Assembly (NCBI GenBank): GCA_016861085.1
Contig: BOKR01000001.1
Location: 1,098,040 to 1,162,039, forward strand
Source: Patescibacteria group bacterium
GTDB lineage: Bacteria > Patescibacteriota > Microgenomatia > UBA1400 > PJMF01
Length of the DNA: 64,000 bases
Direction of reading: 5' to 3'
The position numbers and the translations under genes are program-made. Every line of letters starts with the position of its first letter. The stretch's first letter is position 1. The notes beneath the pieces are model-generated. The model did no database searches and was not told where the DNA came from. It was given only the letters and a program-made list of their open reading frames with translations. Shown piece by piece: positions 16,623-46,509 of the stretch.

Positions 16623-16826
16623 CTAGTTATACAAAACTCTGTTCGCTTTTTCCATTGCACTTTTTTGATAATTTCTGATATAACTACAACAACCAAAATA
16701 ATTGTGGAATCTAGTGAAATTCTAGAACTGTGCCGCAACGGTAAATTTGGCTGATAATTCCAGATAAGTCCGGTCTTCAATCGTTTTGAGTATTGGGTAA
16801 CCAATACAAGTAATTACCAACGTGCA

Positions 16827-18965
16827 TTGGATATCATGCTATATCAACCAACCGTAGAACATATTCCCAGGTTTTTACCTTTTCAGGGTGAACGCTCGTT
16901 TTGCCCTTCACTACCTGAAAGAATTACTTCTGTTCACAAACAACTTTTGGAACAAAGATTGCTGTTTCAACAGTTAGTTACAGAACAACTTAGAAAAAGA
17001 AAAAACAAAAAAAAAGAAGCACTGCATTCCAAAAACTCTATTTGGGATGCTGTTAAACTAGCACAGAGATTTCAAAAACCAGAATACCATACAAGACAGG
17101 CAAAAATTGATTTATTACGCTTTGATGCAGTTCACCATGCAAAAGAAATGGCACTTGTTGAGCCAGTTACTACATTTAGCTATTGGCATACAGTAGAAAA
17201 CAATCAAACGCTAGGTGACGGATATTTTGAAGACATGGGCCTTATGCTCAATACCTTTACTCAGGATTTAGCCCAAAACGGGTTTAACGCCAATAGAGCA
17301 AGTATAGAGTCTATCACCTTTGAAAGAGCAAAAAATATTTTAACCAAAATCGCTACTACAGGAAAAAAAGATGCCCTCTTAATAACAAGTTTTCCAGATG
17401 ATATTGAATCTGGCTATCACGGAGTTGATTCTAAACATAATTGGGACAAACCAGAAACGCACCATTCTTTTTACTACTTATTACAGGTAGGTGCAATTCA
17501 TAAAGATAAAGGTGGTTCAGTAACACAGTTTGAAATACATACTACTCAGTTCCGGGCTTGGCCAAATGCTCGTCAAGCGATTCAATTTCATGAACAACTT
17601 GGCTCTCCACTTACTCAATTTGACGCTCCAATCCCTAATTTATTATTTGCAAACACGATTCAATTAACTCAAGAAAACTTGGAATCTATCGCTAGCAGCA
17701 TGGGATTAACTGGACAATCAAGTATCGAGTCACTATTTAGAGAAATTTTGAACAGCTCTTCAGAAGAACATAGTATAAACAGCACACATATTCCTAAAGT
17801 GAATCTTTCAGAATTCTGGCAGGTTCAAGAAAATTATTTTAACGATTTTTATCTCACTGTTGCCCTCCCCGTTTTTGAAGAAATTTCTCAATTAGAAAAT
17901 AAAAAAATGGATCAAAAAACACAAAAATATCTTCAAACAAAAATTGATTATTTAGATAAAGCCTTCTTTTACTATTCAAAAATTATTCTTGGGTGGATTA
18001 AGATCCATAATACCAATCCAAATTATCTGGCTACATTTGCAGAAAAAAGTCGCATTCAAAAACTTATGGACTTTCAACAGAAATTACTGTTACAACTTTT
18101 GGGACAAAAACAAACAAATGATATCCCAAGCATTGATGATCTTAAAACAGTACTTGATATTGACCATAGACTAGCAACTCGACAAGCTGTTACAGGTGAA
18201 GAAAAGAAAAAATTATTGAGTATATGGGGATTTTTTTCTTACGTTGGCAATTTTGCGAGCTTATTGCAGTGTGGGGCTATGACGCCTTTTTCTATTCCCC
18301 TTTCAATTATGAATAGCACTCCAACTATGGGAGTATCACTTGCAGAGTTTTCTGGCTCACTGGTATCTATCTCATTGCCAGAAAGACAAAAGTTTTTATC
18401 ACTACTACAAAAAGAAACATATATTGAACTTGACTTAACAAAGCAAACCCCAGCAGCAAAGCGAGTGTATGTTGTACCCAAAAGTTACCTTGATGGTGCA
18501 GGTTGTATTGTAAATGACTCAGGTGAAGTATTAGGACCTTGTGTTGACCCTGTAACAAAACAGAGAATTTCTCTTGATGATCCAAGGGATACATTGGCTT
18601 TTCCAATGACTCTTGCTGAATTTACGCAATATATTAATAAATTGCAACAAAGTATTGAACAAACATCACTAACACAAATAGATTCTATTTTTCAAACAAG
18701 TGATTTTTCACCAATTGAAAAAAGAAAAGCTCAAGCTGTTATAAAAAAAATGAGACAAAAATTGATAAAAAATTCACTTGGTCTGCAAGAATTTATTTCT
18801 GGAAATATAACAAATGATCTCGAGTCAAATAATATATGGCTTCAAGAGTTAATTTTGAAATTGGCGTTTTCTATCAATCCAGTTCAAACCCTTATTGAAG
18901 AGGTTGAGCTTAGATTAAGGGAAAAAGATCCTATTTTGGAAGAGATTTTTGAGCAAAATAGCTAG
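16827..18965 (+). CDS. Hypothetical protein (712 aa), function unknown
   Basis: Long ORF. First gene of a long plus-strand block that runs into virB4. Confidence 0.5.
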   Translation: MDIMLYQPTVEHIPRFLPFQGERSFCPSLPERITSVHKQLLEQRLLFQQLVTEQLRKRKNKKKEALHSKNSIWDAVKLAQRFQKPEYHTRQAKIDLLRFDAVHHAKEMALVEPVTTFSYWHTVENNQTLGDGYFEDMGLMLNTFTQDLAQNGFNANRASIESITFERAKNILTKIATTGKKDALLITSFPDDIESGYHGVDSKHNWDKPETHHSFYYLLQVGAIHKDKGGSVTQFEIHTTQFRAWPNARQAIQFHEQLGSPLTQFDAPIPNLLFANTIQLTQENLESIASSMGLTGQSSIESLFREILNSSSEEHSINSTHIPKVNLSEFWQVQENYFNDFYLTVALPVFEEISQLENKKMDQKTQKYLQTKIDYLDKAFFYYSKIILGWIKIHNTNPNYLATFAEKSRIQKLMDFQQKLLLQLLGQKQTNDIPSIDDLKTVLDIDHRLATRQAVTGEEKKKLLSIWGFFSYVGNFASLLQCGAMTPFSIPLSIMNSTPTMGVSLAEFSGSLVSISLPERQKFLSLLQKETYIELDLTKQTPAAKRVYVVPKSYLDGAGCIVNDSGEVLGPCVDPVTKQRISLDDPRDTLAFPMTLAEFTQYINKLQQSIEQTSLTQIDSIFQTSDFSPIEKRKAQAVIKKMRQKLIKNSLGLQEFISGNITNDLESNNIWLQELILKLAFSINPVQTLIEEVELRLREKDPILEEIFEQNS

Positions 18966-38397: not shown

Positions 38398-40687
38398 AGG
38401 GCCAGTTTGCGGTAATAAGCAATTTTTCTTTTGTGATATTAAGTATACTGAATTCTTGCCAAATTGCTTCCGTTATAAATGGCATAAAGGGATGTAGCAA
38501 CTTGAGGAAAATGAGCATGCCTTGAAGCAGTGCTTTTCTTGAAATATGTCCTGACTTGCTTGCTTCAATACATTCATCACAATACCAATGCCAAAATTCA
38601 GTATATACAGTATCAGCTGCCAGACCAATTTTAAAGTCATTGAGCTGTTTTGTCACAGTTTGGACTACTTCTTTTAGTTTTTTTTCAAATGCTTCATCTT
38701 GTGGCGCATCTTTTTCAGCACTTCCTTCAGAAGGCTTTTCTGTCTGCAACATGACAAAGCGTGCAGCGTTCCAAACTTTGTTTGTGAGATTTCGCGCTGC
38801 TTTAAAATCAGGCAATCCAACAGATTTGTCTTGTCCTGGTGTAGAGCGGATGACTAAAGCCATTCTTAAGGCGTCGGCTCCATATTCTTCTTTGACTGAC
38901 AATGGGTTAATGACATTGCCTTTTGATTTAGACATTTTTTGACCCTTTTGGTCACGAACCAGTCCATGTAAGTAGACGTCAGAAAATGGCGTTTTTTGGG
39001 TCATGTAAATGCCTAGAAGCATCATGCGCATTACCCAGAAAGGAAGAATGTCATATCCGGTTTCCATAACAGAGGTAGGGTAGAAGCGATCGAAGTCTCC
39101 TGGTTTTGCATTTTTGAGTGTGACAACTGGCCACTGACTCGAAGAAAACCAAGTGTCAAAGGTATCAGTTTCTTGTAGATATTGGTCATTTGATGGTTTT
39201 GAAAGAGAAACGACATAAGGTACGGAAATGTCGGCGTTCATTGATTGCAGATTTTGTTCAATTTCCTCGAGAGAATATGTTTGTAGCGCCTCAGAGAGTA
39301 GGGCAGAGGTGTATTTTTTTTCTTTGTCTAAGAAGTTAACAGTAATTTTGTTTTCGTATCCGGAGATTTGGTACCAAACTGGAATACCAATTCCCCATAC
39401 AATTTGGCGTGAAATGTTCCAATCCTTGAGGTTATTGAGCCAATGACGCAGGATTTTTTCACGGCCAGCGCCATGAATTTTTGTAGCACCAGAATCAAGG
39501 GCTTGTAGTGCATTTTGAACTAAATTATTTTTTTCATGATTCACACTGATAAAAAATTGAGGCAATGGTAATGGTTCAATCTGGCGGCCACAGCGATAGC
39601 AAATGCCGACTGAGTGTGAGTATTTTTCGTTTGTGTTGAGTAGAAGGGCTCCTCCCTTGTAGGTTTTATATGCTTCAAGGGCGGCTTTTCGAGCATTCAC
39701 AATACCAAGACCGACGTATTCTTTTGGTATAAGTATGTTGTTTTGATCTGCGTTGTAGAGTTTTCCAGAAGTGTTAATCACGGGTTGTGGTACTTCAGAG
39801 ATTTCATTTTTATGGTTTGTCCACATCATAAAATCGTTTGGATCATGATATGGGGTCACTTTCACAGCTCCAGTGCCAAATTCAGGATCAACATATTCGT
39901 CGGCGATAACGGGCATTTTTTTGGTACCCCACGGGAATTCTACCTCTATTTGAGTGCCAATATACTGTTTATATCGTTTATCGTTTGGATTAACTGCGAC
40001 GGCTACATCGCCAAAAATTGTTTCTAAACGTACAGTTGCAACGGTAAGTGGGCCATATTGAATTGTGTGTAAAGGATCGACTTGGTCTTTGTGATCTACC
40101 TCAAGTTCAGAGTAACTTGTTCCGCATTTAAGACAATAGTTGACCAATTTAAAATCACGATACACCAAACCATCTTTATAAAGGGTTTCAAAAGTTTGTA
40201 ACACATTTGAAACGATATCTTTGTCGAGAGTAAATTTAAATCGAGACCAGTCTGCACTAGCACCAAGTTTTTTGATTTGATCAACCGCTACACCAGAGTT
40301 TTCTTGTACGTAATCCCAAATCATTTGAAAGAGGGTAGAACGGTCAAAATTAAATCGAGATTGGTCTTTGGCGGCCAATTTTTTTTCAAAGACAAATTGT
40401 GTTTCGATACCGGCATGATCAGTACCAGGTATCCAAATGGTGTCATTGCCTAGCATACGGTTATAGCGAATTAGTACGTCCTCAAGAGAAACAAACATAG
40501 CATGACCAACATGGAGAGGATCATTTGCATTTGGTGGTGGCATGACGATAGAAAATGGTTTATTTGTGACAGGATTATTTTCTTTTTTGCGAAGTTCCAA
40601 AACAGCGTCGGGGTTAAAAGCATCAGCTTTTTCCCACAAGTCATACATTTTTTCTTCTGTTTGTTGGTGTAAATATCTTGGTTCCAT
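38378..40687 (-). CDS. valS: Valyl-tRNA synthetase (compact, 769 aa; no C-terminal coiled-coil)
   Basis: PPPNANDPLHVGHAMF (HIGH motif), IPGTDHAGIETQ and KMSKSKGN (KMSKS motif). Editing-domain segments are present. Confidence 0.85.
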   Translation of the reverse strand: MEPRYLHQQTEEKMYDLWEKADAFNPDAVLELRKKENNPVTNKPFSIVMPPPNANDPLHVGHAMFVSLEDVLIRYNRMLGNDTIWIPGTDHAGIETQFVFEKKLAAKDQSRFNFDRSTLFQMIWDYVQENSGVAVDQIKKLGASADWSRFKFTLDKDIVSNVLQTFETLYKDGLVYRDFKLVNYCLKCGTSYSELEVDHKDQVDPLHTIQYGPLTVATVRLETIFGDVAVAVNPNDKRYKQYIGTQIEVEFPWGTKKMPVIADEYVDPEFGTGAVKVTPYHDPNDFMMWTNHKNEISEVPQPVINTSGKLYNADQNNILIPKEYVGLGIVNARKAALEAYKTYKGGALLLNTNEKYSHSVGICYRCGRQIEPLPLPQFFISVNHEKNNLVQNALQALDSGATKIHGAGREKILRHWLNNLKDWNISRQIVWGIGIPVWYQISGYENKITVNFLDKEKKYTSALLSEALQTYSLEEIEQNLQSMNADISVPYVVSLSKPSNDQYLQETDTFDTWFSSSQWPVVTLKNAKPGDFDRFYPTSVMETGYDILPFWVMRMMLLGIYMTQKTPFSDVYLHGLVRDQKGQKMSKSKGNVINPLSVKEEYGADALRMALVIRSTPGQDKSVGLPDFKAARNLTNKVWNAARFVMLQTEKPSEGSAEKDAPQDEAFEKKLKEVVQTVTKQLNDFKIGLAADTVYTEFWHWYCDECIEASKSGHISRKALLQGMLIFLKLLHPFMPFITEAIWQEFSILNITKEKLLITANWPYEISTV

Positions 40688-40753
40688 GGTTTCTTAATTA
40701 TAACATCTCGAGGTGGTTTTGGATGAGTTATTTTTGATTAAGACCTATAGTAC

Positions 40754-40781
40754 TTGACTTTAACAACCTATAAAATATAAT
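40754..40781 (+). promoter_or_regulatory. sigma70-like promoter A (TTGACT-N16-TATAAT) driving the long leader of membrane-protein paralog A
   Basis: ttgactttaacaacctataaaatataat. The same consensus promoter precedes cassette B. Confidence 0.55.
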
Positions 40782-40860
40782 ATGCTGGCAATAAAAATCC
40801 ATAGGAAATGGGAAACCGTTTTTTATTCTTTCTTATTGTATGGTAAAGAATTACTAAAAA

Positions 40861-40918
40861 CCCCAATTTGCTTGGGGTAGTTTTGGTAGATCTTTGCACT
40901 TTAACATCCTAGTTATTT
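40861..40918 (+). repeat. Conserved leader element, copy A (hairpin CCCCAA-tttgc-TTGGGG + TCTTTGCaCTTTAACATCCTAGTTATTT)
   Basis: ~80% identical to 43269..43326 with a compensatory G-U change in the stem. Lies ~80 nt downstream of promoter A. Confidence 0.6.
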
Positions 40919-41066
40919 TTAATTTTTAGAGTTTAGTCCTATATAGTGAGCTCTGTTAAGTTGTTGATTTGATGAACAATTTGAGAGAGCTCATTATTTT
41001 AAAAACAGAGCTAAAAGGCCAATGATGGCTTGTCACTGGGAGGCTTTGCTTCCCGAAAACTAAATT

Positions 41067-41087
41067 AGCCGAAGGGCTTAAACTCAA
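41067..41087 (+). repeat. Conserved motif 2, copy A: AGCCGAAGGGCTTAAACTCAA (5-bp stem, GAAG loop)
   Basis: Matches 43703..43724 (AGCCGGAGGGCTTTAAACTCAA). Confidence 0.5.
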
Positions 41088-41241
41088 GAACAAAAATAAA
41101 TTGAAAAAATTCCAAAAAAATAAAAAATTCGGAAAAAAGTTTGAACGGCGTCTCAATAGGCGCGCACCACCGGCCTCGAAGAGGTCATGGCGCAACTCTG
41201 CGCCGATCATCTCTGGAGCGAATAAAAACGCTCGCAGATAG

Positions 41242-42900
41242 GTGACAAAGATGAAAATTTCAGTTCAAGATTTTGGTAAGAAACTGACAGAAATTGTTAC
41301 GTTTCTAAGTGACGAAAAGGGAAACCCCGAGTGGTATTTCCCCGGTCATGCTCGCACCATCAAGTCTCGTTTAACAAGTAATTGGCTGTCAAAGAAGGAA
41401 TCCATTGCGGATACGCTGGATAATCTTGCTTTAGCCATTACGACAAAGTATCCAGAAAAGCACCAGCAACTTGGTCTTACGGCCATGAATAACTCAAACT
41501 CTTTGCGGAGGAGTGCGCGAATTTTGCGTACATTGACTGAAGAAGGGGTTGAGCTGACTGGATTGGACGAGCAGTATTGGCGCGATGTTGAATTGCCTGT
41601 TGAAGTCATCAAAATGGATTTCGTTGCGATTTCCAAAGGTACGTTTGCTGTGACTGATGGTGATTTTTACCGCCAAAAAGAGCAGGCAAAGAAGGAAGAA
41701 GAGTCTAAAAAAGAAGAAGCCAAGCAGGCCAAGCGCGACCGTCGAAAAAATCGTTCCCAAGAACCCCCAAAATCTGAAGGCGCTCCTGTTGCTGAGGGTT
41801 CTACCAGTGGCGAAGCCCAAACCCAAGCTCAGGCCTTTCTGCAGAAAATCAATCTGCGGGCGATCCTGATTGTGGTTGCTTTGTTGATTGGTTTATGGAT
41901 TGCATGGGGCCTTTGGCAGAATAATGGTGACAGCATTATGACTTTCTTCAACAGCACAGGAAATAGTGGTGTCGAAACCACAAACCAGGGGACAAGTGAA
42001 ACTGAAACCACTGGAGGTGAAAACAACGCTGACAGCGGTTCTGGTGTTCCAGGAGAAAACTACAGTGTCATTCCAGACGGCCAACTTTCCGACAAAATGG
42101 TCGCGGCCAAGTTCCTGTTCCTTAAAGTCCAGGGGATGTTGGAAATGCCCGTTACGATTGCCGTGGCATTCCTCATTGCTTTTGTGTTCTACAAGATCTT
42201 TTTAGATCGGACACATGGTGGTGATCCCGGCGATTTTGGCCTGGTGGTTGGTGGGATGCTTGTCTTTGCTTTCCTGGTTTGGCTCCCGATTGGGGAATAT
42301 TTCTTCCCTGGTCAGGGTTTGGTTACGAAGGACGGTGAGCTCATCACTATCAGGGCTATTCAAAACTTTGTGTGCCTGATTGCTTTGGGGGTTTACCTCC
42401 TGGCTGTAGCCATTAACGGGGTGGGTGATTTGACCCCACTGTCCGGCGGCTTCTTCATCGCAGGGTTTGTTTTCTGGTTTGGCCAGCCCGATATGTACCT
42501 TAACTGGGTACCTCCCCAAATTACTTTCGCCTGCTGGGCGATTGGGGCGGGCCTTCATGCGCTAGAACTGTTCCGTCAAGGGACAGTTTTGACTACGATC
42601 ATTTTCGTGATTGTGGGTGGCATCGCGCAGGTACTGATTTTTCTTGGCCTGGCACGCGTTTTTGGTGCAACCGACATGCCAGTCGTCCTGAAATATGCCC
42701 AACTGATGGCTTTTGTTATCTCCCAGAGCGCTGTAGTTGGTGTGGTGGGTTTCCTGCTTTCCGCGGTTGGTAAAAACAAAGTGATCCCGATTAACGGGGT
42801 CATGGTCGGGAAGTTTTTCCAGGCTGTTGACAGTGTGGCGCACGACGCTGCGATTGCCCTCTGTTTCTGGGGGGCTATCTTCTTGGCCTTGTTCTGGTAA
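41242..42900 (+). CDS. Paralog A: ~150-aa cytoplasmic N-domain, K/E-rich linker, polytopic (6 or more TM) C-domain; function unknown. The likely true start is the ATG at 41251.
   Basis: EWYFPGHARTIKSRL...LGLTAMNNSNSLRRSARILRTL...GLDEQYWRDVELPVEVIKMDF aligns with paralog B. The codon usage is GC-rich and unlike flanking genes. Confidence 0.55.
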   Translation: MTKMKISVQDFGKKLTEIVTFLSDEKGNPEWYFPGHARTIKSRLTSNWLSKKESIADTLDNLALAITTKYPEKHQQLGLTAMNNSNSLRRSARILRTLTEEGVELTGLDEQYWRDVELPVEVIKMDFVAISKGTFAVTDGDFYRQKEQAKKEEESKKEEAKQAKRDRRKNRSQEPPKSEGAPVAEGSTSGEAQTQAQAFLQKINLRAILIVVALLIGLWIAWGLWQNNGDSIMTFFNSTGNSGVETTNQGTSETETTGGENNADSGSGVPGENYSVIPDGQLSDKMVAAKFLFLKVQGMLEMPVTIAVAFLIAFVFYKIFLDRTHGGDPGDFGLVVGGMLVFAFLVWLPIGEYFFPGQGLVTKDGELITIRAIQNFVCLIALGVYLLAVAINGVGDLTPLSGGFFIAGFVFWFGQPDMYLNWVPPQITFACWAIGAGLHALELFRQGTVLTTIIFVIVGGIAQVLIFLGLARVFGATDMPVVLKYAQLMAFVISQSAVVGVVGFLLSAVGKNKVIPINGVMVGKFFQAVDSVAHDAAIALCFWGAIFLALFW

Positions 42901-43015
42901 ACCAATCCGAGGAGTCTGGTGGCTTAAAGGTGAAACCAAAAAATAAATAAAAAAAGAATGGCTCCAAGTGAGCCAATATACTAAAAATAAACAAAAAAAT
43001 ATAACTAGGATGACG

Positions 43016-43055
43016 GCCGTGAGCGGGGAGGACAATAATATACCCCGCTCACGGC
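43016..43055 (+). terminator. GC-rich 13-bp stem-loop after paralog A (no U-tract); probable terminator or structured 3' end
   Basis: GCCGTGAGCGGGG-aggacaataatata-CCCCGCTCACGGC. Confidence 0.45.
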
Positions 43056-43129
43056 GCGAATCACAAGAATTTTAACTGATTTATTAGAATTTTTCTGATT
43101 TGTAAATAATTTAAACCTCTTGTTATTAA

Positions 43130-43157
43130 CTTGACTTTTCAGACCTATAACATATAA
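43130..43157 (+). promoter_or_regulatory. sigma70-like promoter B (TTGACT-N16-TATAAT) for cassette B
   Basis: ttgacttttcagacctataacatataat. The hexamers and spacing are near-identical to promoter A. Confidence 0.55.
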
Positions 43158-43268
43158 TACAAGAACTATGAAAGAGCATCATAAGAGTGCATCTGTTAAC
43201 TCTTCACTAAGAGGAGGGTACGGTGCGCTTTTTTTGTTTGAGTAATAGATGATAAAGATATATGGAAC

Positions 43269-43326
43269 ACTCCAATTAGCTTGGGGTAATTCTAGCGTAT
43301 CTTTGCTCTTTAACATCCTAGTTATT
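43269..43326 (+). repeat. Conserved leader element, copy B
   Basis: ctccaattagcttggggtaattctagcgtatctttgctctttaacatcctagttattt. Lies ~110 nt downstream of promoter B. Confidence 0.6.
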
Positions 43327-43702
43327 TATTGTTAAGTAACTTTTATAGATATTTAGATACTTTGAAAAGCGATTTTCATGTATTCCCTTGAGTTTTAGCC
43401 AAGTAGTAGGCTCTGGTAAGTTGTCTTGTTTCTTTTTAGGGACATGGCGATTTACTTGAGCCTGCTATCAACTCACGCTAAACCTGTTTTAAATAACAGA
43501 ATCTGTTGTGCTACCCTGTGTTGTGAAAACGATGCTTTGAGGTGCCCAGATTTGGTAAAGTGTGAGTTTACTTTAGGCTCTCTTTATTAAGATGCCCATT
43601 GAAAAGTGGGCTTAATTACGAACTGCCCGGTCAACGGGCGCTTATGGCCTGTTGGCCGTTTATTGTGATGGGGTTTTTAAAAATGCCCCGAGTAAATCTA
43701 AA

Positions 43703-43724
43703 AGCCGGAGGGCTTTAAACTCAA
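43703..43724 (+). repeat. Conserved motif 2, copy B, immediately upstream of the RBS/ATG at 43734
   Basis: AGCCGGAGGGCTTTAAACTCAA, followed by aaGGTGGataATG. Confidence 0.5.
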
Positions 43725-43733
43725 AGGTGGATA

Positions 43734-44090
43734 ATGAAAGCGAATGTTAGTGCTCCCGATACTTCGTCTGCTGAAACAGGGGGAAACTCTGTTCAGCGTG
43801 ACCTTATTTTATTGGTTATCTTTTACGCGATTGGCGTTGCGATTCAGGTATTTGGAAAGCTCCCCATCGGGATCTTTTTCAACTTGATCATCGCGGCTGA
43901 AATCGCGGCAATCCCGACCCGGATGTTGTTTGCTCCTAAGGTCAATCAAATGACCGCTAATAGCAAAAAGCACCTCGGCGAGGAAGCCCACGAAGTGGGC
44001 AAGGGGATTGCTTTCCTGTTTTTCTCGATTCTGGTTGGTATTCCGGCGTTTGGGTTGCTTTGCATCCCCTACATCCTGTTGTTAGTATAG
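43734..44090 (+). CDS. Small polytopic membrane protein (118 aa)
   Basis: Three or more hydrophobic helices. Sits in the GC-rich island and is preceded by motif 2 and an RBS. Confidence 0.45.
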   Translation: MKANVSAPDTSSAETGGNSVQRDLILLVIFYAIGVAIQVFGKLPIGIFFNLIIAAEIAAIPTRMLFAPKVNQMTANSKKHLGEEAHEVGKGIAFLFFSILVGIPAFGLLCIPYILLLV

Positions 44091-44116
44091 TCGGCCGGTG
44101 GCCGAAAACTTAGAGG

Positions 44117-44818
44117 GTGAATAAAATGATGCGTTTAATGGATAAACTGTTCGAGCGCCCTTTGTTGGCACTACTTGTTCTTGCTCTATTAATCGGTTTT
44201 TCTGTGTTGCCCGACATAATTGGTGGGCCACCGCAACCCATGGGCACAGACTATGTTGGTCTGGTCCGCGAGTTTGACGGCAAAACCTATTATTGTAATC
44301 AGGTGACCAACACAAACCATTGTAGTGAGTGGGAGGACGTGGCAGACAGTGCGACAGATGTTGCCGATGCCTTTGGCCCCGGAATGTTGGGGGTCGCCAA
44401 AGGGGAAGCGCCGTTGCTTCCCACCGATTTGTGGTATTCTGCATTCCTGAACCCGATCAACACGACCGTTTTCAGCCTTAGCATGGAAACCGGGATACCC
44501 GTGTTTGCCATTTTGCTAGGTAGTGTGTTGCTTTTTTGGTTTTTGACCCTCAGGGCGTTGAAGCCAAAGAGTGTTGGTGTGGTGTTGGCGGTCACCGTTT
44601 TACCGGGATATGTGGCATTCATGTCGGCCGCCACGTTGAGTGGTGGCATGGCCCTAGTTACTATCGTCCACCTTTGTGGTGTGCCATTGCTATTGCTAAT
44701 TGTTGTTCTTAAGCTTTTTGCAGGGATTAACATTAGCACTGGTTCTCGGCGATCCGCTGATGGGGAATTTGAAACTTATACTGTGATTGGAAAAGGCGGA
44801 GGTCTCCGCCGTAAATAG
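44117..44818 (+). CDS. Membrane protein (233 aa): N-terminal TM, Cys-containing extracytoplasmic segment, C-terminal TM bundle
   Basis: Long ORF with GC-rich codon usage. Hydrophobic segments are LLALLVLALLIGF and IPVFAILLGSVLLFWFL. Confidence 0.45.
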   Translation: MNKMMRLMDKLFERPLLALLVLALLIGFSVLPDIIGGPPQPMGTDYVGLVREFDGKTYYCNQVTNTNHCSEWEDVADSATDVADAFGPGMLGVAKGEAPLLPTDLWYSAFLNPINTTVFSLSMETGIPVFAILLGSVLLFWFLTLRALKPKSVGVVLAVTVLPGYVAFMSAATLSGGMALVTIVHLCGVPLLLLIVVLKLFAGINISTGSRRSADGEFETYTVIGKGGGLRRK

Positions 44819-44871
44819 TTTTTTGAGGGGCGGCTTGAATAAGGTCGCCCCCAAAAAGGGGTGAAATTACC

Positions 44872-46509
44872 ATGAAAATCACGAGCAAAACCTTAAGGGA
44901 AAAATTGGTTAAGCTCTGTAACGAACTTAATCAAGAAACAGGGGAGTACCAAGATTGGTACTTCCCGGAAGAATCAAAGTCAATTCGAGAACATCTGCCT
45001 CCTGGTGGCTGGCTGAAGCAAAAAGCCAAGCTGATGAAAGGCCTGGAGGCCGTGGCGAACGCTATGACTTCAAAATACGGCAAAGGCCATGAGTTAGGCC
45101 TGGCGGCAATCAGTAACTCTAATATGGTTCGTCGTCTTGCTCATATCTTAGACCAGTTTACTGGCGAAGATATGGAGATTGGCGGCCTTGATGAGCTATA
45201 CTGGAAAGAAGCCGATATCGCAATAGAAGTCATAGAAATGGACTTTGCCAGGATCAAGAAAAAGGTCTTCGCATCCACAGAAGGTGAACTCTACCGTCTT
45301 GAAAAGGCAGATGCTGATGCAAAGGCCAAAGCAGAGAAGGAAAAGCAAGAAGCAAAGAAGAGTAAAGGTAAGAAAAAGAAGGAGAAGAAAAATGAAAGTT
45401 CTCCTCCTGAAGCTCCTGCCCCAGAAGCTGAAAATGCTGAATCCGAACCTGCACAAGAACAAACGGCCGCACCGGCCGGTAAGAAATTCGGCTTACCCAA
45501 TGTGAACTTTTCAATGAAGAAAGTGGTTGGGGTCGTAGCTGTTTTAGTTGCCCTCTATCTGATTCTGGGTACAGGTTTGCTTGGTACCATCACTGGCATG
45601 ATTAGCGGTGATGGCGCCAGTCAACCGCTGGTGTACAATCAGGTAGATCCGAATGCAACTTCGCCAGGTTACACTGTTAACCCAGATGGGACAATCACGT
45701 TGAACCCCACTGATAACAGCTCCAACCCTGCCGTACAGATAACGCCATCGGCCCAAAACTTGCAAACGAAAGTTCAAAACTTACTTGCCCTTTTAAAAGA
45801 AGGGAGGTTGGTGGCGATGATTCTCCTGAGTTTGGGCGGCCTGGTTTTAATAATGTTTGATCGTGCGGCCGACTTCGAAGTAGAGGATTTCTACGTTTCT
45901 CTGGCAATATTGGCGGCATACCTTGTCATGGTACTCCTGACAGATGGTACTGTGACTTTGGCCGGGAAGCAAATAGAAATGGACCTGCTCTTAACTATCC
46001 TGATGGCTGGGGCGCTCTTTGTGGTTGCCTGGCTGGGCAACCGCGACTTCACTGTCGTTTCTGTTGGGATGTTTCTAGCTGGGAACATCCTATTCGTCAC
46101 GAACATTACAGCTTTTGCGGCGTTCCAGCCACCACCGGTTGCCCTGCAAGCCTGGGCCATAGGTGGAGCAGTTCAATTAATGGAGATGATCCGCCAGGAA
46201 AATACGGGTAAGACGATTCTGATTGGGGCAGTTGGGATTGTTGTTCAGGCAGTCCTGTTTTTCGTGATTCTGGGCAAGCTTTCCACAGCGACAGACCCGT
46301 TTGTTGTGAGCCATGTGCAGGTGATCAGTTACACGTCAGCGATCATTCTCACGTTCATCGGCATCGTTGGCTTCATGTTTGCTGGCCTAAAAACGGATGT
46401 GTTCAAAAACATCAACGGCATCCAAAATACAATTAACACGGCGATGTTCGACGTCGCTGTGGTTGCGAACTGTTTTGGGGCGTTATGGCTTATGCTCTAC
46501 ATTTGGTAA
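44872..46509 (+). CDS. Paralog B of the 41242..42900 protein (N-domain + K/E/A-rich linker + polytopic C-domain)
   Basis: DWYFPEESKSIREHL...LGLAAISNSNMVRRLAHILDQF...GLDELYWKEADIAIEVIEMDF. The RBS GGGGTGA precedes the ATG. Confidence 0.55.
   Translation: MKITSKTLREKLVKLCNELNQETGEYQDWYFPEESKSIREHLPPGGWLKQKAKLMKGLEAVANAMTSKYGKGHELGLAAISNSNMVRRLAHILDQFTGEDMEIGGLDELYWKEADIAIEVIEMDFARIKKKVFASTEGELYRLEKADADAKAKAEKEKQEAKKSKGKKKKEKKNESSPPEAPAPEAENAESEPAQEQTAAPAGKKFGLPNVNFSMKKVVGVVAVLVALYLILGTGLLGTITGMISGDGASQPLVYNQVDPNATSPGYTVNPDGTITLNPTDNSSNPAVQITPSAQNLQTKVQNLLALLKEGRLVAMILLSLGGLVLIMFDRAADFEVEDFYVSLAILAAYLVMVLLTDGTVTLAGKQIEMDLLLTILMAGALFVVAWLGNRDFTVVSVGMFLAGNILFVTNITAFAAFQPPPVALQAWAIGGAVQLMEMIRQENTGKTILIGAVGIVVQAVLFFVILGKLSTATDPFVVSHVQVISYTSAIILTFIGIVGFMFAGLKTDVFKNINGIQNTINTAMFDVAVVANCFGALWLMLYIW

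Follow-up and report, generated by a model that had tools for sequence, protein, structure and literature searches.

Candidate cis-acting structured leaders in front of a variable membrane-protein operon in Patescibacteria

We analysed a 64,000-nucleotide (nt) stretch of contig BOKR01000001.1 (positions 1,098,040 to 1,162,039 of the forward strand, hereafter the window), which belongs to a metagenome-assembled genome (MAG) of the Patescibacteria, or Candidate Phyla Radiation (CPR). It contains two gene cassettes, A and B, each preceded by a long leader (~462 nt in A and ~568 nt in B). These leaders are conserved among related genomes, form helices that covary, fold better on the plus strand than on the minus strand and carry no coding signal, and in the B type a strand of the leader is predicted to pair with the Shine-Dalgarno (SD) sequence of the first gene. 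Hence, we consider it reasonably probable that they form a new, narrowly distributed family of cis-acting structured leaders, controlling translation and probably transcription read-through. The original prediction for this region, made from the sequence of the window alone, had pointed to a 58-nt hairpin-plus-tail shared by the two cassettes; this turned out to be a small and statistically weak part of a multi-helix RNA of ~460-570 nt.

Conservation and structure of the leaders

After de-duplication, nine distinct leaders were available from seven related Patescibacteria lineages, namely A and B of the window and those of the related loci L006, L012, L018, L019, L025, L028 and L030. Relatives L012 to L030 are contigs that encode members of the protein clusters of g1, the first gene of cassette B, and L006 came from a scan of a genome collection with the tail motif, in which it was the one true homologue and the other six of the seven matches were due to chance. 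In every related locus leuS on the minus strand is followed by a gap of 420-780 nt, by genes g1, g2 and g3 on the plus strand and, where the contig extends so far, by vanW on the minus strand. The window has the order rnpA-yidC-jag-rnhA-DUF4012-L25-TPR-leuS (minus), cassettes A and B, vanW (minus), and it is the only one of these loci with the extra cassette A. The distribution is narrow throughout: the g1 family (118 amino acids) makes up only seven sequence clusters among 5.8 billion proteins, a viral collection gave no match to the motif, a metagenome scan with a first pattern (CCTAGTT) gave none either, and a second pattern in the JGI metagenome collection returned only the L019 contig again, plus three chance matches. 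A covariance model of the 58-nt block, run over 150 kb, found no copies in the window beyond these two and a single one at each related locus.

Both cassettes start with TTGACT and TATAAT at a spacing of 16 nt, each matching the consensus at 11 of 12 positions, and these are the best two such sites in the region, in agreement with the near-identical promoters seen originally. A near-consensus sigma-70-type promoter would drive each cassette, giving rise to a transcript with a long untranslated leader. A 31-nt promoter pattern and a 29-nt tail pattern each occur exactly twice in the 64 kb, against none expected from shuffles. The distance from the -10 element to the shared block is 80 nt in A and 112 nt in B, and the genes start 333 nt (A) and 407 nt (B) past the block, as had been described; the two copies are identical at 49 of 58 positions (84%), copy A lies at 40861-40918 as given, and copy B had been placed one base off (43270-43327, not 43269-43326). 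The elements of cassette B, in window coordinates, are as follows.

43131 to 43158, plus strand: promoter-like site TTGACT-16-TATAAT, 11/12 match, kept in L012, L018, L019, L025 and L030
43165 to 43180, plus strand: conserved 5′ segment ACUAUGAAAGAGCAUC, where the transcript is predicted to start, kept in six B-type leaders
43185 to 43235, plus strand: T1, a two-tier hairpin with an invariant 3x3 internal loop and then U7, with the look of an intrinsic terminator (-20 to -22 kcal/mol in four lineages)
43269 to 43287, plus strand: H1 hairpin, copy B (ACUCCAA/UUGGGGU), counted with T1 for covariation
43302 to 43318, plus strand: invariant 17-nt segment UUUGCUCUUUAACAUCC, copy B, from the comparison of leaders
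43320 to 43341, plus strand: P3 hairpin, copy B (AGUUAUUUA/UAAGUAACU), from folding and the manual helix table
43381 to 43400, plus strand: 5′ strand of the long-range helix, with the anti-SD-like sequence UAUUCCCUUGAGUUUUAGCC (duplex with 43710-43734 of -21.2 vs -10.1 kcal/mol, 0/300 shuffles)
43403 to 43468, plus strand: H2 long hairpin, copy B (7/23 pairs compensatory; independently predicted by RNAalifold)
43472 to 43566, plus strand: P5 helix (43472-43479 with 43559-43566), enclosing H2b (43484-43499) and H3 (43499-43553), from RNAalifold
43594 to 43611, 43625 to 43639, 43646 to 43657 and 43670 to 43689, plus strand: four small GC-rich hairpins, differing in number and sequence among lineages
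43703 to 43734, plus strand: terminal hairpin AGCC-GGAG-GGCU (43703-43714), then the 3′ strand of the long-range helix (43710-43734) with the SD AAGGUGG (43724-43730), up to the ATG, from folds
43734 to 46509, plus strand: operon of orphan membrane proteins, g1 (43734-44090, 118 amino acids), g2 (44117-44818) and g3 (44872-46509, 545 amino acids)

In the B-type order, a spacer separates T1 from H1 and an AU-rich spacer separates P3 from the 5′ strand of the long-range helix. Leader A, a paralogue, is shorter and has diverged; it is a leader which shares with B the promoter, H1, the 17-nt segment, P3, the long-range helix, H2 and the terminal hairpin, and which has neither a convincing T1 nor H3. 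Its terminal element is followed by a doubtful 46-codon open reading frame (ORF) and four GC-rich hairpins before gene A, not by a clear SD.

40754 to 40781, plus strand: promoter-like site TTGACT-16-TATAAT, 11/12 match, a pattern shared in the window only with cassette B
40801 to 40826, plus strand: weak A/U hairpin in the place of T1 (-9.7 kcal/mol), which absorbs its own U-run; no convincing terminator
40860 to 40878, plus strand: H1 hairpin, copy A (ACCCCAA/UUGGGGU; 94.6% of cells paired in eight sequences, just one pair covarying)
40893 to 40909, plus strand: invariant 17-nt segment UUUGCACUUUAACAUCC, copy A, the same in 8/9 leaders but for one base (GCUC in all B-type leaders)
40911 to 40924, plus strand: short version of the small, AU-rich P3 hairpin, copy A (pair 2 is G-C, G-U or A-U in the manual table)
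40923 to 40939, plus strand: 5′ strand of the long-range helix, copy A (UUUUUAGAGUUUAGUCC; duplex with 41074-41091 of -16.0 kcal/mol vs -7.3 kcal/mol in shuffles)
40943 to 40997, plus strand: H2 long hairpin, copy A
41017 to 41030 and 41038 to 41054, plus strand: two small GC-rich hairpins, from the single-sequence fold only, this being the sole A-type sequence
41067 to 41091, plus strand: terminal hairpin AGCC-GAAG-GGCU and 3′ strand of the long-range helix GGGCUUAAACUCAAGAAC, copy A, the same element as B 43703-43734
41101 to 41241, plus strand: candidate 46-codon basic ORF with a TTG start, read from the sequence, overlapping the four GC-rich hairpins (41147-41233)
41251 to 42900, plus strand: gene A, a 549-residue orphan membrane protein, paralogue of g3

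Both leaders are much more stable than expected (z = -9.1 for leader A, 40784-41245, and z = -9.3 for leader B, 43161-43740), compared with z = -0.30 for a coding control of equal length. The reverse complement of leader A reached z = -3.9, and its minimum free energy (MFE) was 37 kcal/mol weaker. A minus-strand RNA was tried as a candidate and rejected: besides the weaker fold, G-U pairs would turn into C-A on that strand, and the ORF starting in the reverse complement of the 17-nt segment ranges from 14 codons to a fusion with leuS.

Covariation was counted on alignments that had not been fitted to the structure. For T1 and H1 together, 95.5% of the cells were paired (36-61% with the partner slid) and the covariation score of 0.264, against 0.183, was reached in 0/500 shuffles; T1 pairs show compensatory changes of both the G-C/A-U and the A-U/U-A kind. 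H3 was paired in 98% of cells, with 5/14 pairs changed on both sides (0/500 shuffles), and H2 in 95%, with 7/23 pairs changed on both sides and 0/500 shuffles by every measure. RNAalifold, proposed originally as a check and run here on four sequences, predicted H2, P5, H2b, H3, the terminal hairpin and the pairing between anti-SD and SD, and 14 of its 90 pairs were compensatory. A hand-made helix table, which leans towards the structure, holds 21 compensatory pairs in all. The original prediction would have fallen had further genomes lacked conservation or covariation; it survives, homologous leaders with compensatory changes being present in seven lineages. The Rfam scan that it had also called for placed the leaders in no family: none of the 4227 covariance models of Rfam 15 reached its gathering threshold in 40600-43900 or in five related loci, and the matches at E ≤ 5-10 were far below threshold and consisted of spurious miRNA-type matches to the H2 hairpin.

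Of the block itself, the hairpin had been read correctly (CCCCAA/UUGGGG in A; CUCCAA/UUGGGG, which contains a G-U pair, in B), but its covariation alone is weak. The single-stranded tail was in part upheld, as UUUGCNCUUUAACAUCC (17 nt) looks unpaired, but the tail end AGUUAUUU is probably the 5′ arm of P3. In L012 (9650-9740) and L018, the apical loop of H2 has an AU-rich insertion of ~100 nt that is absent from the other leaders, and the basal 23 bp of H2 are kept.

The conservation could alternatively come from hidden genes for small proteins on either strand, which we regard as highly improbable. It is true that every leader contains ORFs of 30-84 codons, that gene callers stretched leuS across the leader in L025 and L030, and that the 46-codon ORF of cassette A lies where g1 lies in B. 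However, mismatches between leaders have no 3-nt periodicity (p = 0.34-0.99), unlike those in the g1 control (p = 1e-4), the ORFs of at least 30 codons differ among leaders in frame, position and length, and none of them matches a family. On the minus strand, the ORF starting in the 17-nt segment has 14, 17 or 47 codons, or runs into leuS, depending on the locus. The 84-residue minus-strand ORF (40956-41210) had been called probably spurious, and this is supported, as it has no Pfam match, overlaps covarying helices and has no counterpart in other leaders. The ATG within 43165-43180 opens ORFs of just 5-25 codons, which are not conserved, and among the hidden ORFs tried as candidates no conserved one was found.

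Predicted pairing over the Shine-Dalgarno sequence and how the leader might act

In 8/8 sequences, the strand just 5′ of H2 is predicted to form a duplex with a stretch made up of the terminal hairpin's 3′ arm, the linker and the SD, at -15 to -21 kcal/mol compared to -7 to -10 kcal/mol for shuffles. The upstream strand UUCCUCU, UUCCCUU or CUUU faces AAGGAG, AAGGUGG or AAGGG. This helix was counted by hand because MAFFT could not place its strands in one register, and in the hand-made alignment one core position is G-C, A-U or U-A in different lineages. In all seven unconstrained MFE folds of full-length leaders (494-613 nt), the SD was paired with the same strand 330-375 nt upstream, and its mean probability of being unpaired was 0.07-0.41. 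By computation, therefore, an anti-SD in the same transcript pairs with the SD, as in SD-sequestering operators; this does not hold for the SD of gene A.

On the basis of this pairing, which every fold places on one and the same upstream strand, we propose that the leader controls translation, as a functional multi-helix RNA acting in cis on the genes behind it. Its 3′ two-thirds (H2, P5 with H2b and H3, the small hairpins and the terminal hairpin) would form a domain of ~330 nt closed by the long-range helix, with the anti-SD-like sequence (UUCCUCU or UUCCCUU) on the 5′ strand and the linker and SD of the first gene on the 3′ strand. When this domain is folded, the ribosome-binding site would be occluded, which by default may limit the translation of g1 and, by coupling, that of the whole operon.

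Two well-known systems resemble this arrangement. The E. coli rpoS mRNA has a leader of ~570 nt, in which the message's own upstream sequence pairs with the ribosome-binding region and keeps it off until a trans factor opens it. The leaders described here are similar in their length and in the upstream strand that pairs with the ribosome-binding region, but in rpoS a local inhibitory stem is opened by known small RNAs (sRNAs) with Hfq, whereas here the pairing spans ~330 nt around a covarying domain, and there is no sequence or Rfam relationship between the two. In the operator of the L20 (rpmI-rplT) operon, the first cistron has its ribosome-binding site blocked by a long-range pseudoknot, and coupling extends the control downstream. 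Here too, segments hundreds of nt apart are predicted to pair over the ribosome-binding site of the first cistron. Unlike the L20 case, where the effector is an encoded ribosomal protein, the genes here code for orphan membrane proteins, so that autoregulation would be a guess, and the intervening RNA is strongly conserved.

B-type leaders might have a second control point in T1, which lies ~20 nt past the predicted start and would be expected to end most transcripts except where read-through takes place. T1 has the stable hairpin and U-tract of an intrinsic terminator (-20 to -22 kcal/mol, U6-7, with a compensated stem); the corresponding hairpin of cassette A does not, being of -9.7 kcal/mol with the U-run inside the stem. 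A strong hairpin with a U-tract between promoter and genes, near leuS, is reminiscent of T-box and other attenuators. In contrast to T-box leaders, however, leuS here is on the opposite strand and divergently transcribed, and it is absent beside copy B of the window; the T-box model of Rfam had no match in the window or the related loci. No antiterminator is supported here. One was tried as a candidate, in which an upstream GCACU would pair with AGUGC of the 5′ arm of T1, and rejected, as the G-to-A change in L019 is compensated only within T1. The original suggestion of a riboswitch-like or attenuator RNA is thus supported in part: the predicted burial of the SD and the terminator-like hairpin of the B type fit a cis-regulatory leader or attenuator, but "riboswitch" is still a guess, as nothing points to a ligand.

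H1 and the invariant 17-nt segment lie between these two modules and would most likely serve as the recognition site through which a protein or RNA acting in trans determines the leader's state. The 17-nt segment itself probably binds a partner. Three partners for this segment were tried as candidates and rejected. The complement in the 5′ segment AAAGAGCA is 8 bp long in B, L012 and L018 and is broken in L025, L030 and L019; that in the 3′ arm of H1 is perfect only in L018 and L019; and AUCCU as an anti-SD fits just 3-4 nt of the variable SDs.

A small-molecule riboswitch would account for the same SD pairing, with the ~330-nt domain as an aptamer whose ligand stabilises the closing helix and turns translation off, and with T1 perhaps as a second, terminator-embedded sensor. 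The leaders contain what is generically expected of a riboswitch, a conserved structured sensor domain in the 5′ leader: the domain is large, covaries across seven lineages and has invariant internal loops, T1 has its invariant 3x3 internal loop, and the closing helix holds the SD, as in the translational OFF riboswitches of the SAM-II and preQ1 classes. Moreover, GGCU can pair either with the local AGCC of the terminal hairpin or with the distal AGYC of the long-range helix, and both pairings are compatible with the GGCU-to-GACU change in L012 and L018, where a C-G pair of the terminal hairpin has become U-A. We nevertheless find this explanation quite unlikely, since no known class matches in Rfam, the orphan membrane proteins downstream give no clue to a ligand, the distribution is tiny (seven lineages), and no mutually exclusive expression-platform structure is backed by covariation. 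At ~330 nt, the domain is to our knowledge several times the size of any known aptamer.

The size of the RNA brings to mind large non-coding RNAs such as OLE, ROOL, GOLLD, HEARO and raiA, which resemble it in size (~0.5 kb), in having many covarying helices and in being confined to a narrow range of lineages. A stand-alone RNA of this kind, acting in trans or as a scaffold and merely located upstream of the operon, would agree with the length of 460-570 nt, with a housekeeping-like conservation while the genes behind are replaced, and with an invariant 17-nt segment that suggests a sequence-specific partner. This seems unlikely to us, though, because the closing helix takes in the SD of g1 in every B-type leader, so that the RNA is continuous with an mRNA and holds its SD, unlike in the RNAs just named. 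Furthermore, there is no convincing terminator at the 3′ end, no second promoter-like site was found between T1 and g1, and each locus has one copy of the leader, which invariably accompanies the same operon family. The covariance models of these five RNAs gave no match in the region even at E ≤ 10, and no large-RNA model of Rfam matched.

Several points weigh against the proposed cis-acting leader. The covariation comes from nine sequences of a narrow clade, so that the statistics are limited, and relatedness inflates the shuffle controls. Taken alone, H1 varies in one pair (C-G/U-G/U-A), and shuffles reach its score in 208/500 cases; P3 alone is without statistical support, the covariance-model alignment having left its register unfixed, with poor formal counts. 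The long-range helix needs bulges in differing registers and was counted only on the structure-leaning hand alignment. In cassette A, it misses the SD of gene A and precedes the doubtful 46-codon ORF. The 17-nt segment has no conserved pairing partner, as RNAduplex against the rest of each leader gave differing sites. Finally, no conserved alternative pairing of the anti-anti-SD or antiterminator kind, which would speak for a switch and not for a constitutive structure, was found, and covariation supports none.

A conserved leader in front of variable genes

Between genomes, the leaders are 72-81% identical in nucleotides, which is close to leuS (75-77% in nucleotides, 79-81% in amino acids); VanW is 65-69% identical in amino acids. 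The operon proteins are far more variable (g1 28-74%, g2 26-66% and g3 23-52% amino acid identity) in a mosaic way. When L006 is compared with L030, 50-nt windows along the leader have 80-100% identity, and at exactly the start codon of g1 the value drops from ~90% to ~50%, g1 being 33% identical; the leader has therefore been kept while the genes behind it were replaced. The g1 of the window is closest to that of L006 (74%, vs 28% to L025), and its g2 and g3 are closest to L025 (66% and 52%, vs 56% and 35%). Judging from these sequence comparisons, g1-g2-g3, which are syntenic in all related loci, look like a hypervariable, mosaic cassette that is exchanged behind a conserved leader.

The same sharp boundary would be expected if the conservation were at the level of DNA, with the leader as a homology arm or recombination platform for operon exchange between strains and the RNA structure incidental. 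The fall from 80-100% to ~50% at the g1 start codon, the mosaic identities of g1, g2 and g3, and the L006 contig, which breaks inside the leader as expected of a repeat, would all be explained. However, a recombination arm has no need for compensatory changes, for a strand asymmetry that depends on G-U pairs, or for an anti-SD/SD pairing that is kept through sequence change, and as the sole explanation it appears very unlikely. The two roles are not exclusive, and such an arm is compatible with the cis-acting leader that we favour.

A bolder version of the cis-acting leader can be put forward tentatively, and we lean against it. The leaders might represent a new class of sensor RNA, large and ornate, that serves as the fixed expression platform for a recombination-exchanged, hypervariable membrane- or surface-protein cassette in episymbiotic CPR bacteria, with the 17-nt segment and the ~330-nt domain receiving a signal. 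If a trigger of this kind exists, it would be a ligand, host contact, an sRNA or the cytoplasmic N-terminal domain common to the products of gene A and g3. It would then open the buried ribosome-binding site, allow read-through of T1 or both, and the same switch would govern any cassette allele placed behind it.

The operon proteins had no significant Pfam, NCBIfam or PADLOC match, all matches being below the curated cut-offs. The product of gene A is identical to BroJett025_11210 and found only itself among 5.8 billion proteins; it is 41% identical to the g3 product (545 amino acids) over the N-terminal 143 residues (E = 5e-32). AlphaFold2 modelled this common N-terminal domain with a pLDDT (predicted local distance difference test) of 47. 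The candidate 46-codon ORF in front of gene A is very basic, and only 9 nt separate its stop from the following ATG of gene A, a spacing at which the two could possibly be translationally coupled. It has no family match and is a single example, the window being the only A-type locus.

Regulatory RNAs are almost uncharted in the Patescibacteria, whose small genomes have few recognisable regulators, and our literature search yielded no publication that deals with this locus or with structured leaders from this group. A covarying RNA of ~0.5 kb conserved as well as leuS would rank among the largest bacterial cis-acting leaders. It would also provide an experimental handle on a fast-evolving, apparently exchangeable operon whose orphan membrane proteins could plausibly take part in the interactions of these episymbionts with hosts or phages.

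Annotation, assembly and neighbouring features

A smaller, practical consequence is that public leuS gene calls across the leader are wrong and that the leader repeat breaks assemblies. In L025 (697-3297, minus strand) and L030 (3-1364, minus strand), leuS is overextended by ~97 codons across the promoter, T1, H1 and the 17-nt segment, and these calls begin at an ATG within the reverse complement of the invariant segment (GGATGTTAAAG). The true leuS start is ~280 nt further in, as in the window (769 amino acids), and the overextension is an annotation artefact. The L006 contig (CAZDWQ010000009.1) is filed in a MAG named 'uncultured Pseudomonadales bacterium', yet it is syntenic with the Patescibacteria locus (leader, g1-g3 and vanW) and is probably mis-binned. 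It begins inside the leader, as a repeat-induced assembly break would look, which hints at a second cassette in that genome too.

A strong GC-rich hairpin (GGCCGTGAGCGGGG ... CCCCGCTCACGGC) lies on the plus strand at 43016-43056, ~115 nt past the stop of gene A, with no T-run after it; it could mark the end of the cassette A transcript or be a barrier before the B promoter. The G+C content is 0.45-0.48 at 42001-46000, compared to ~0.33-0.40 over most of the window, and the richer interval corresponds to the last part of gene A plus operon g1-g3. Elsewhere in the window, an adenosylcobalamin (AdoCbl) riboswitch match at 16679-16837 (plus strand) is the only Rfam match and is barely over its threshold (51.4 vs 50 bits). 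It stands directly upstream of ORFs of 712 (16827-18965) and 1439 (18999-23318) amino acids, both without a Pfam match, a context that is unusual for a cobalamin riboswitch, here in a CPR genome.

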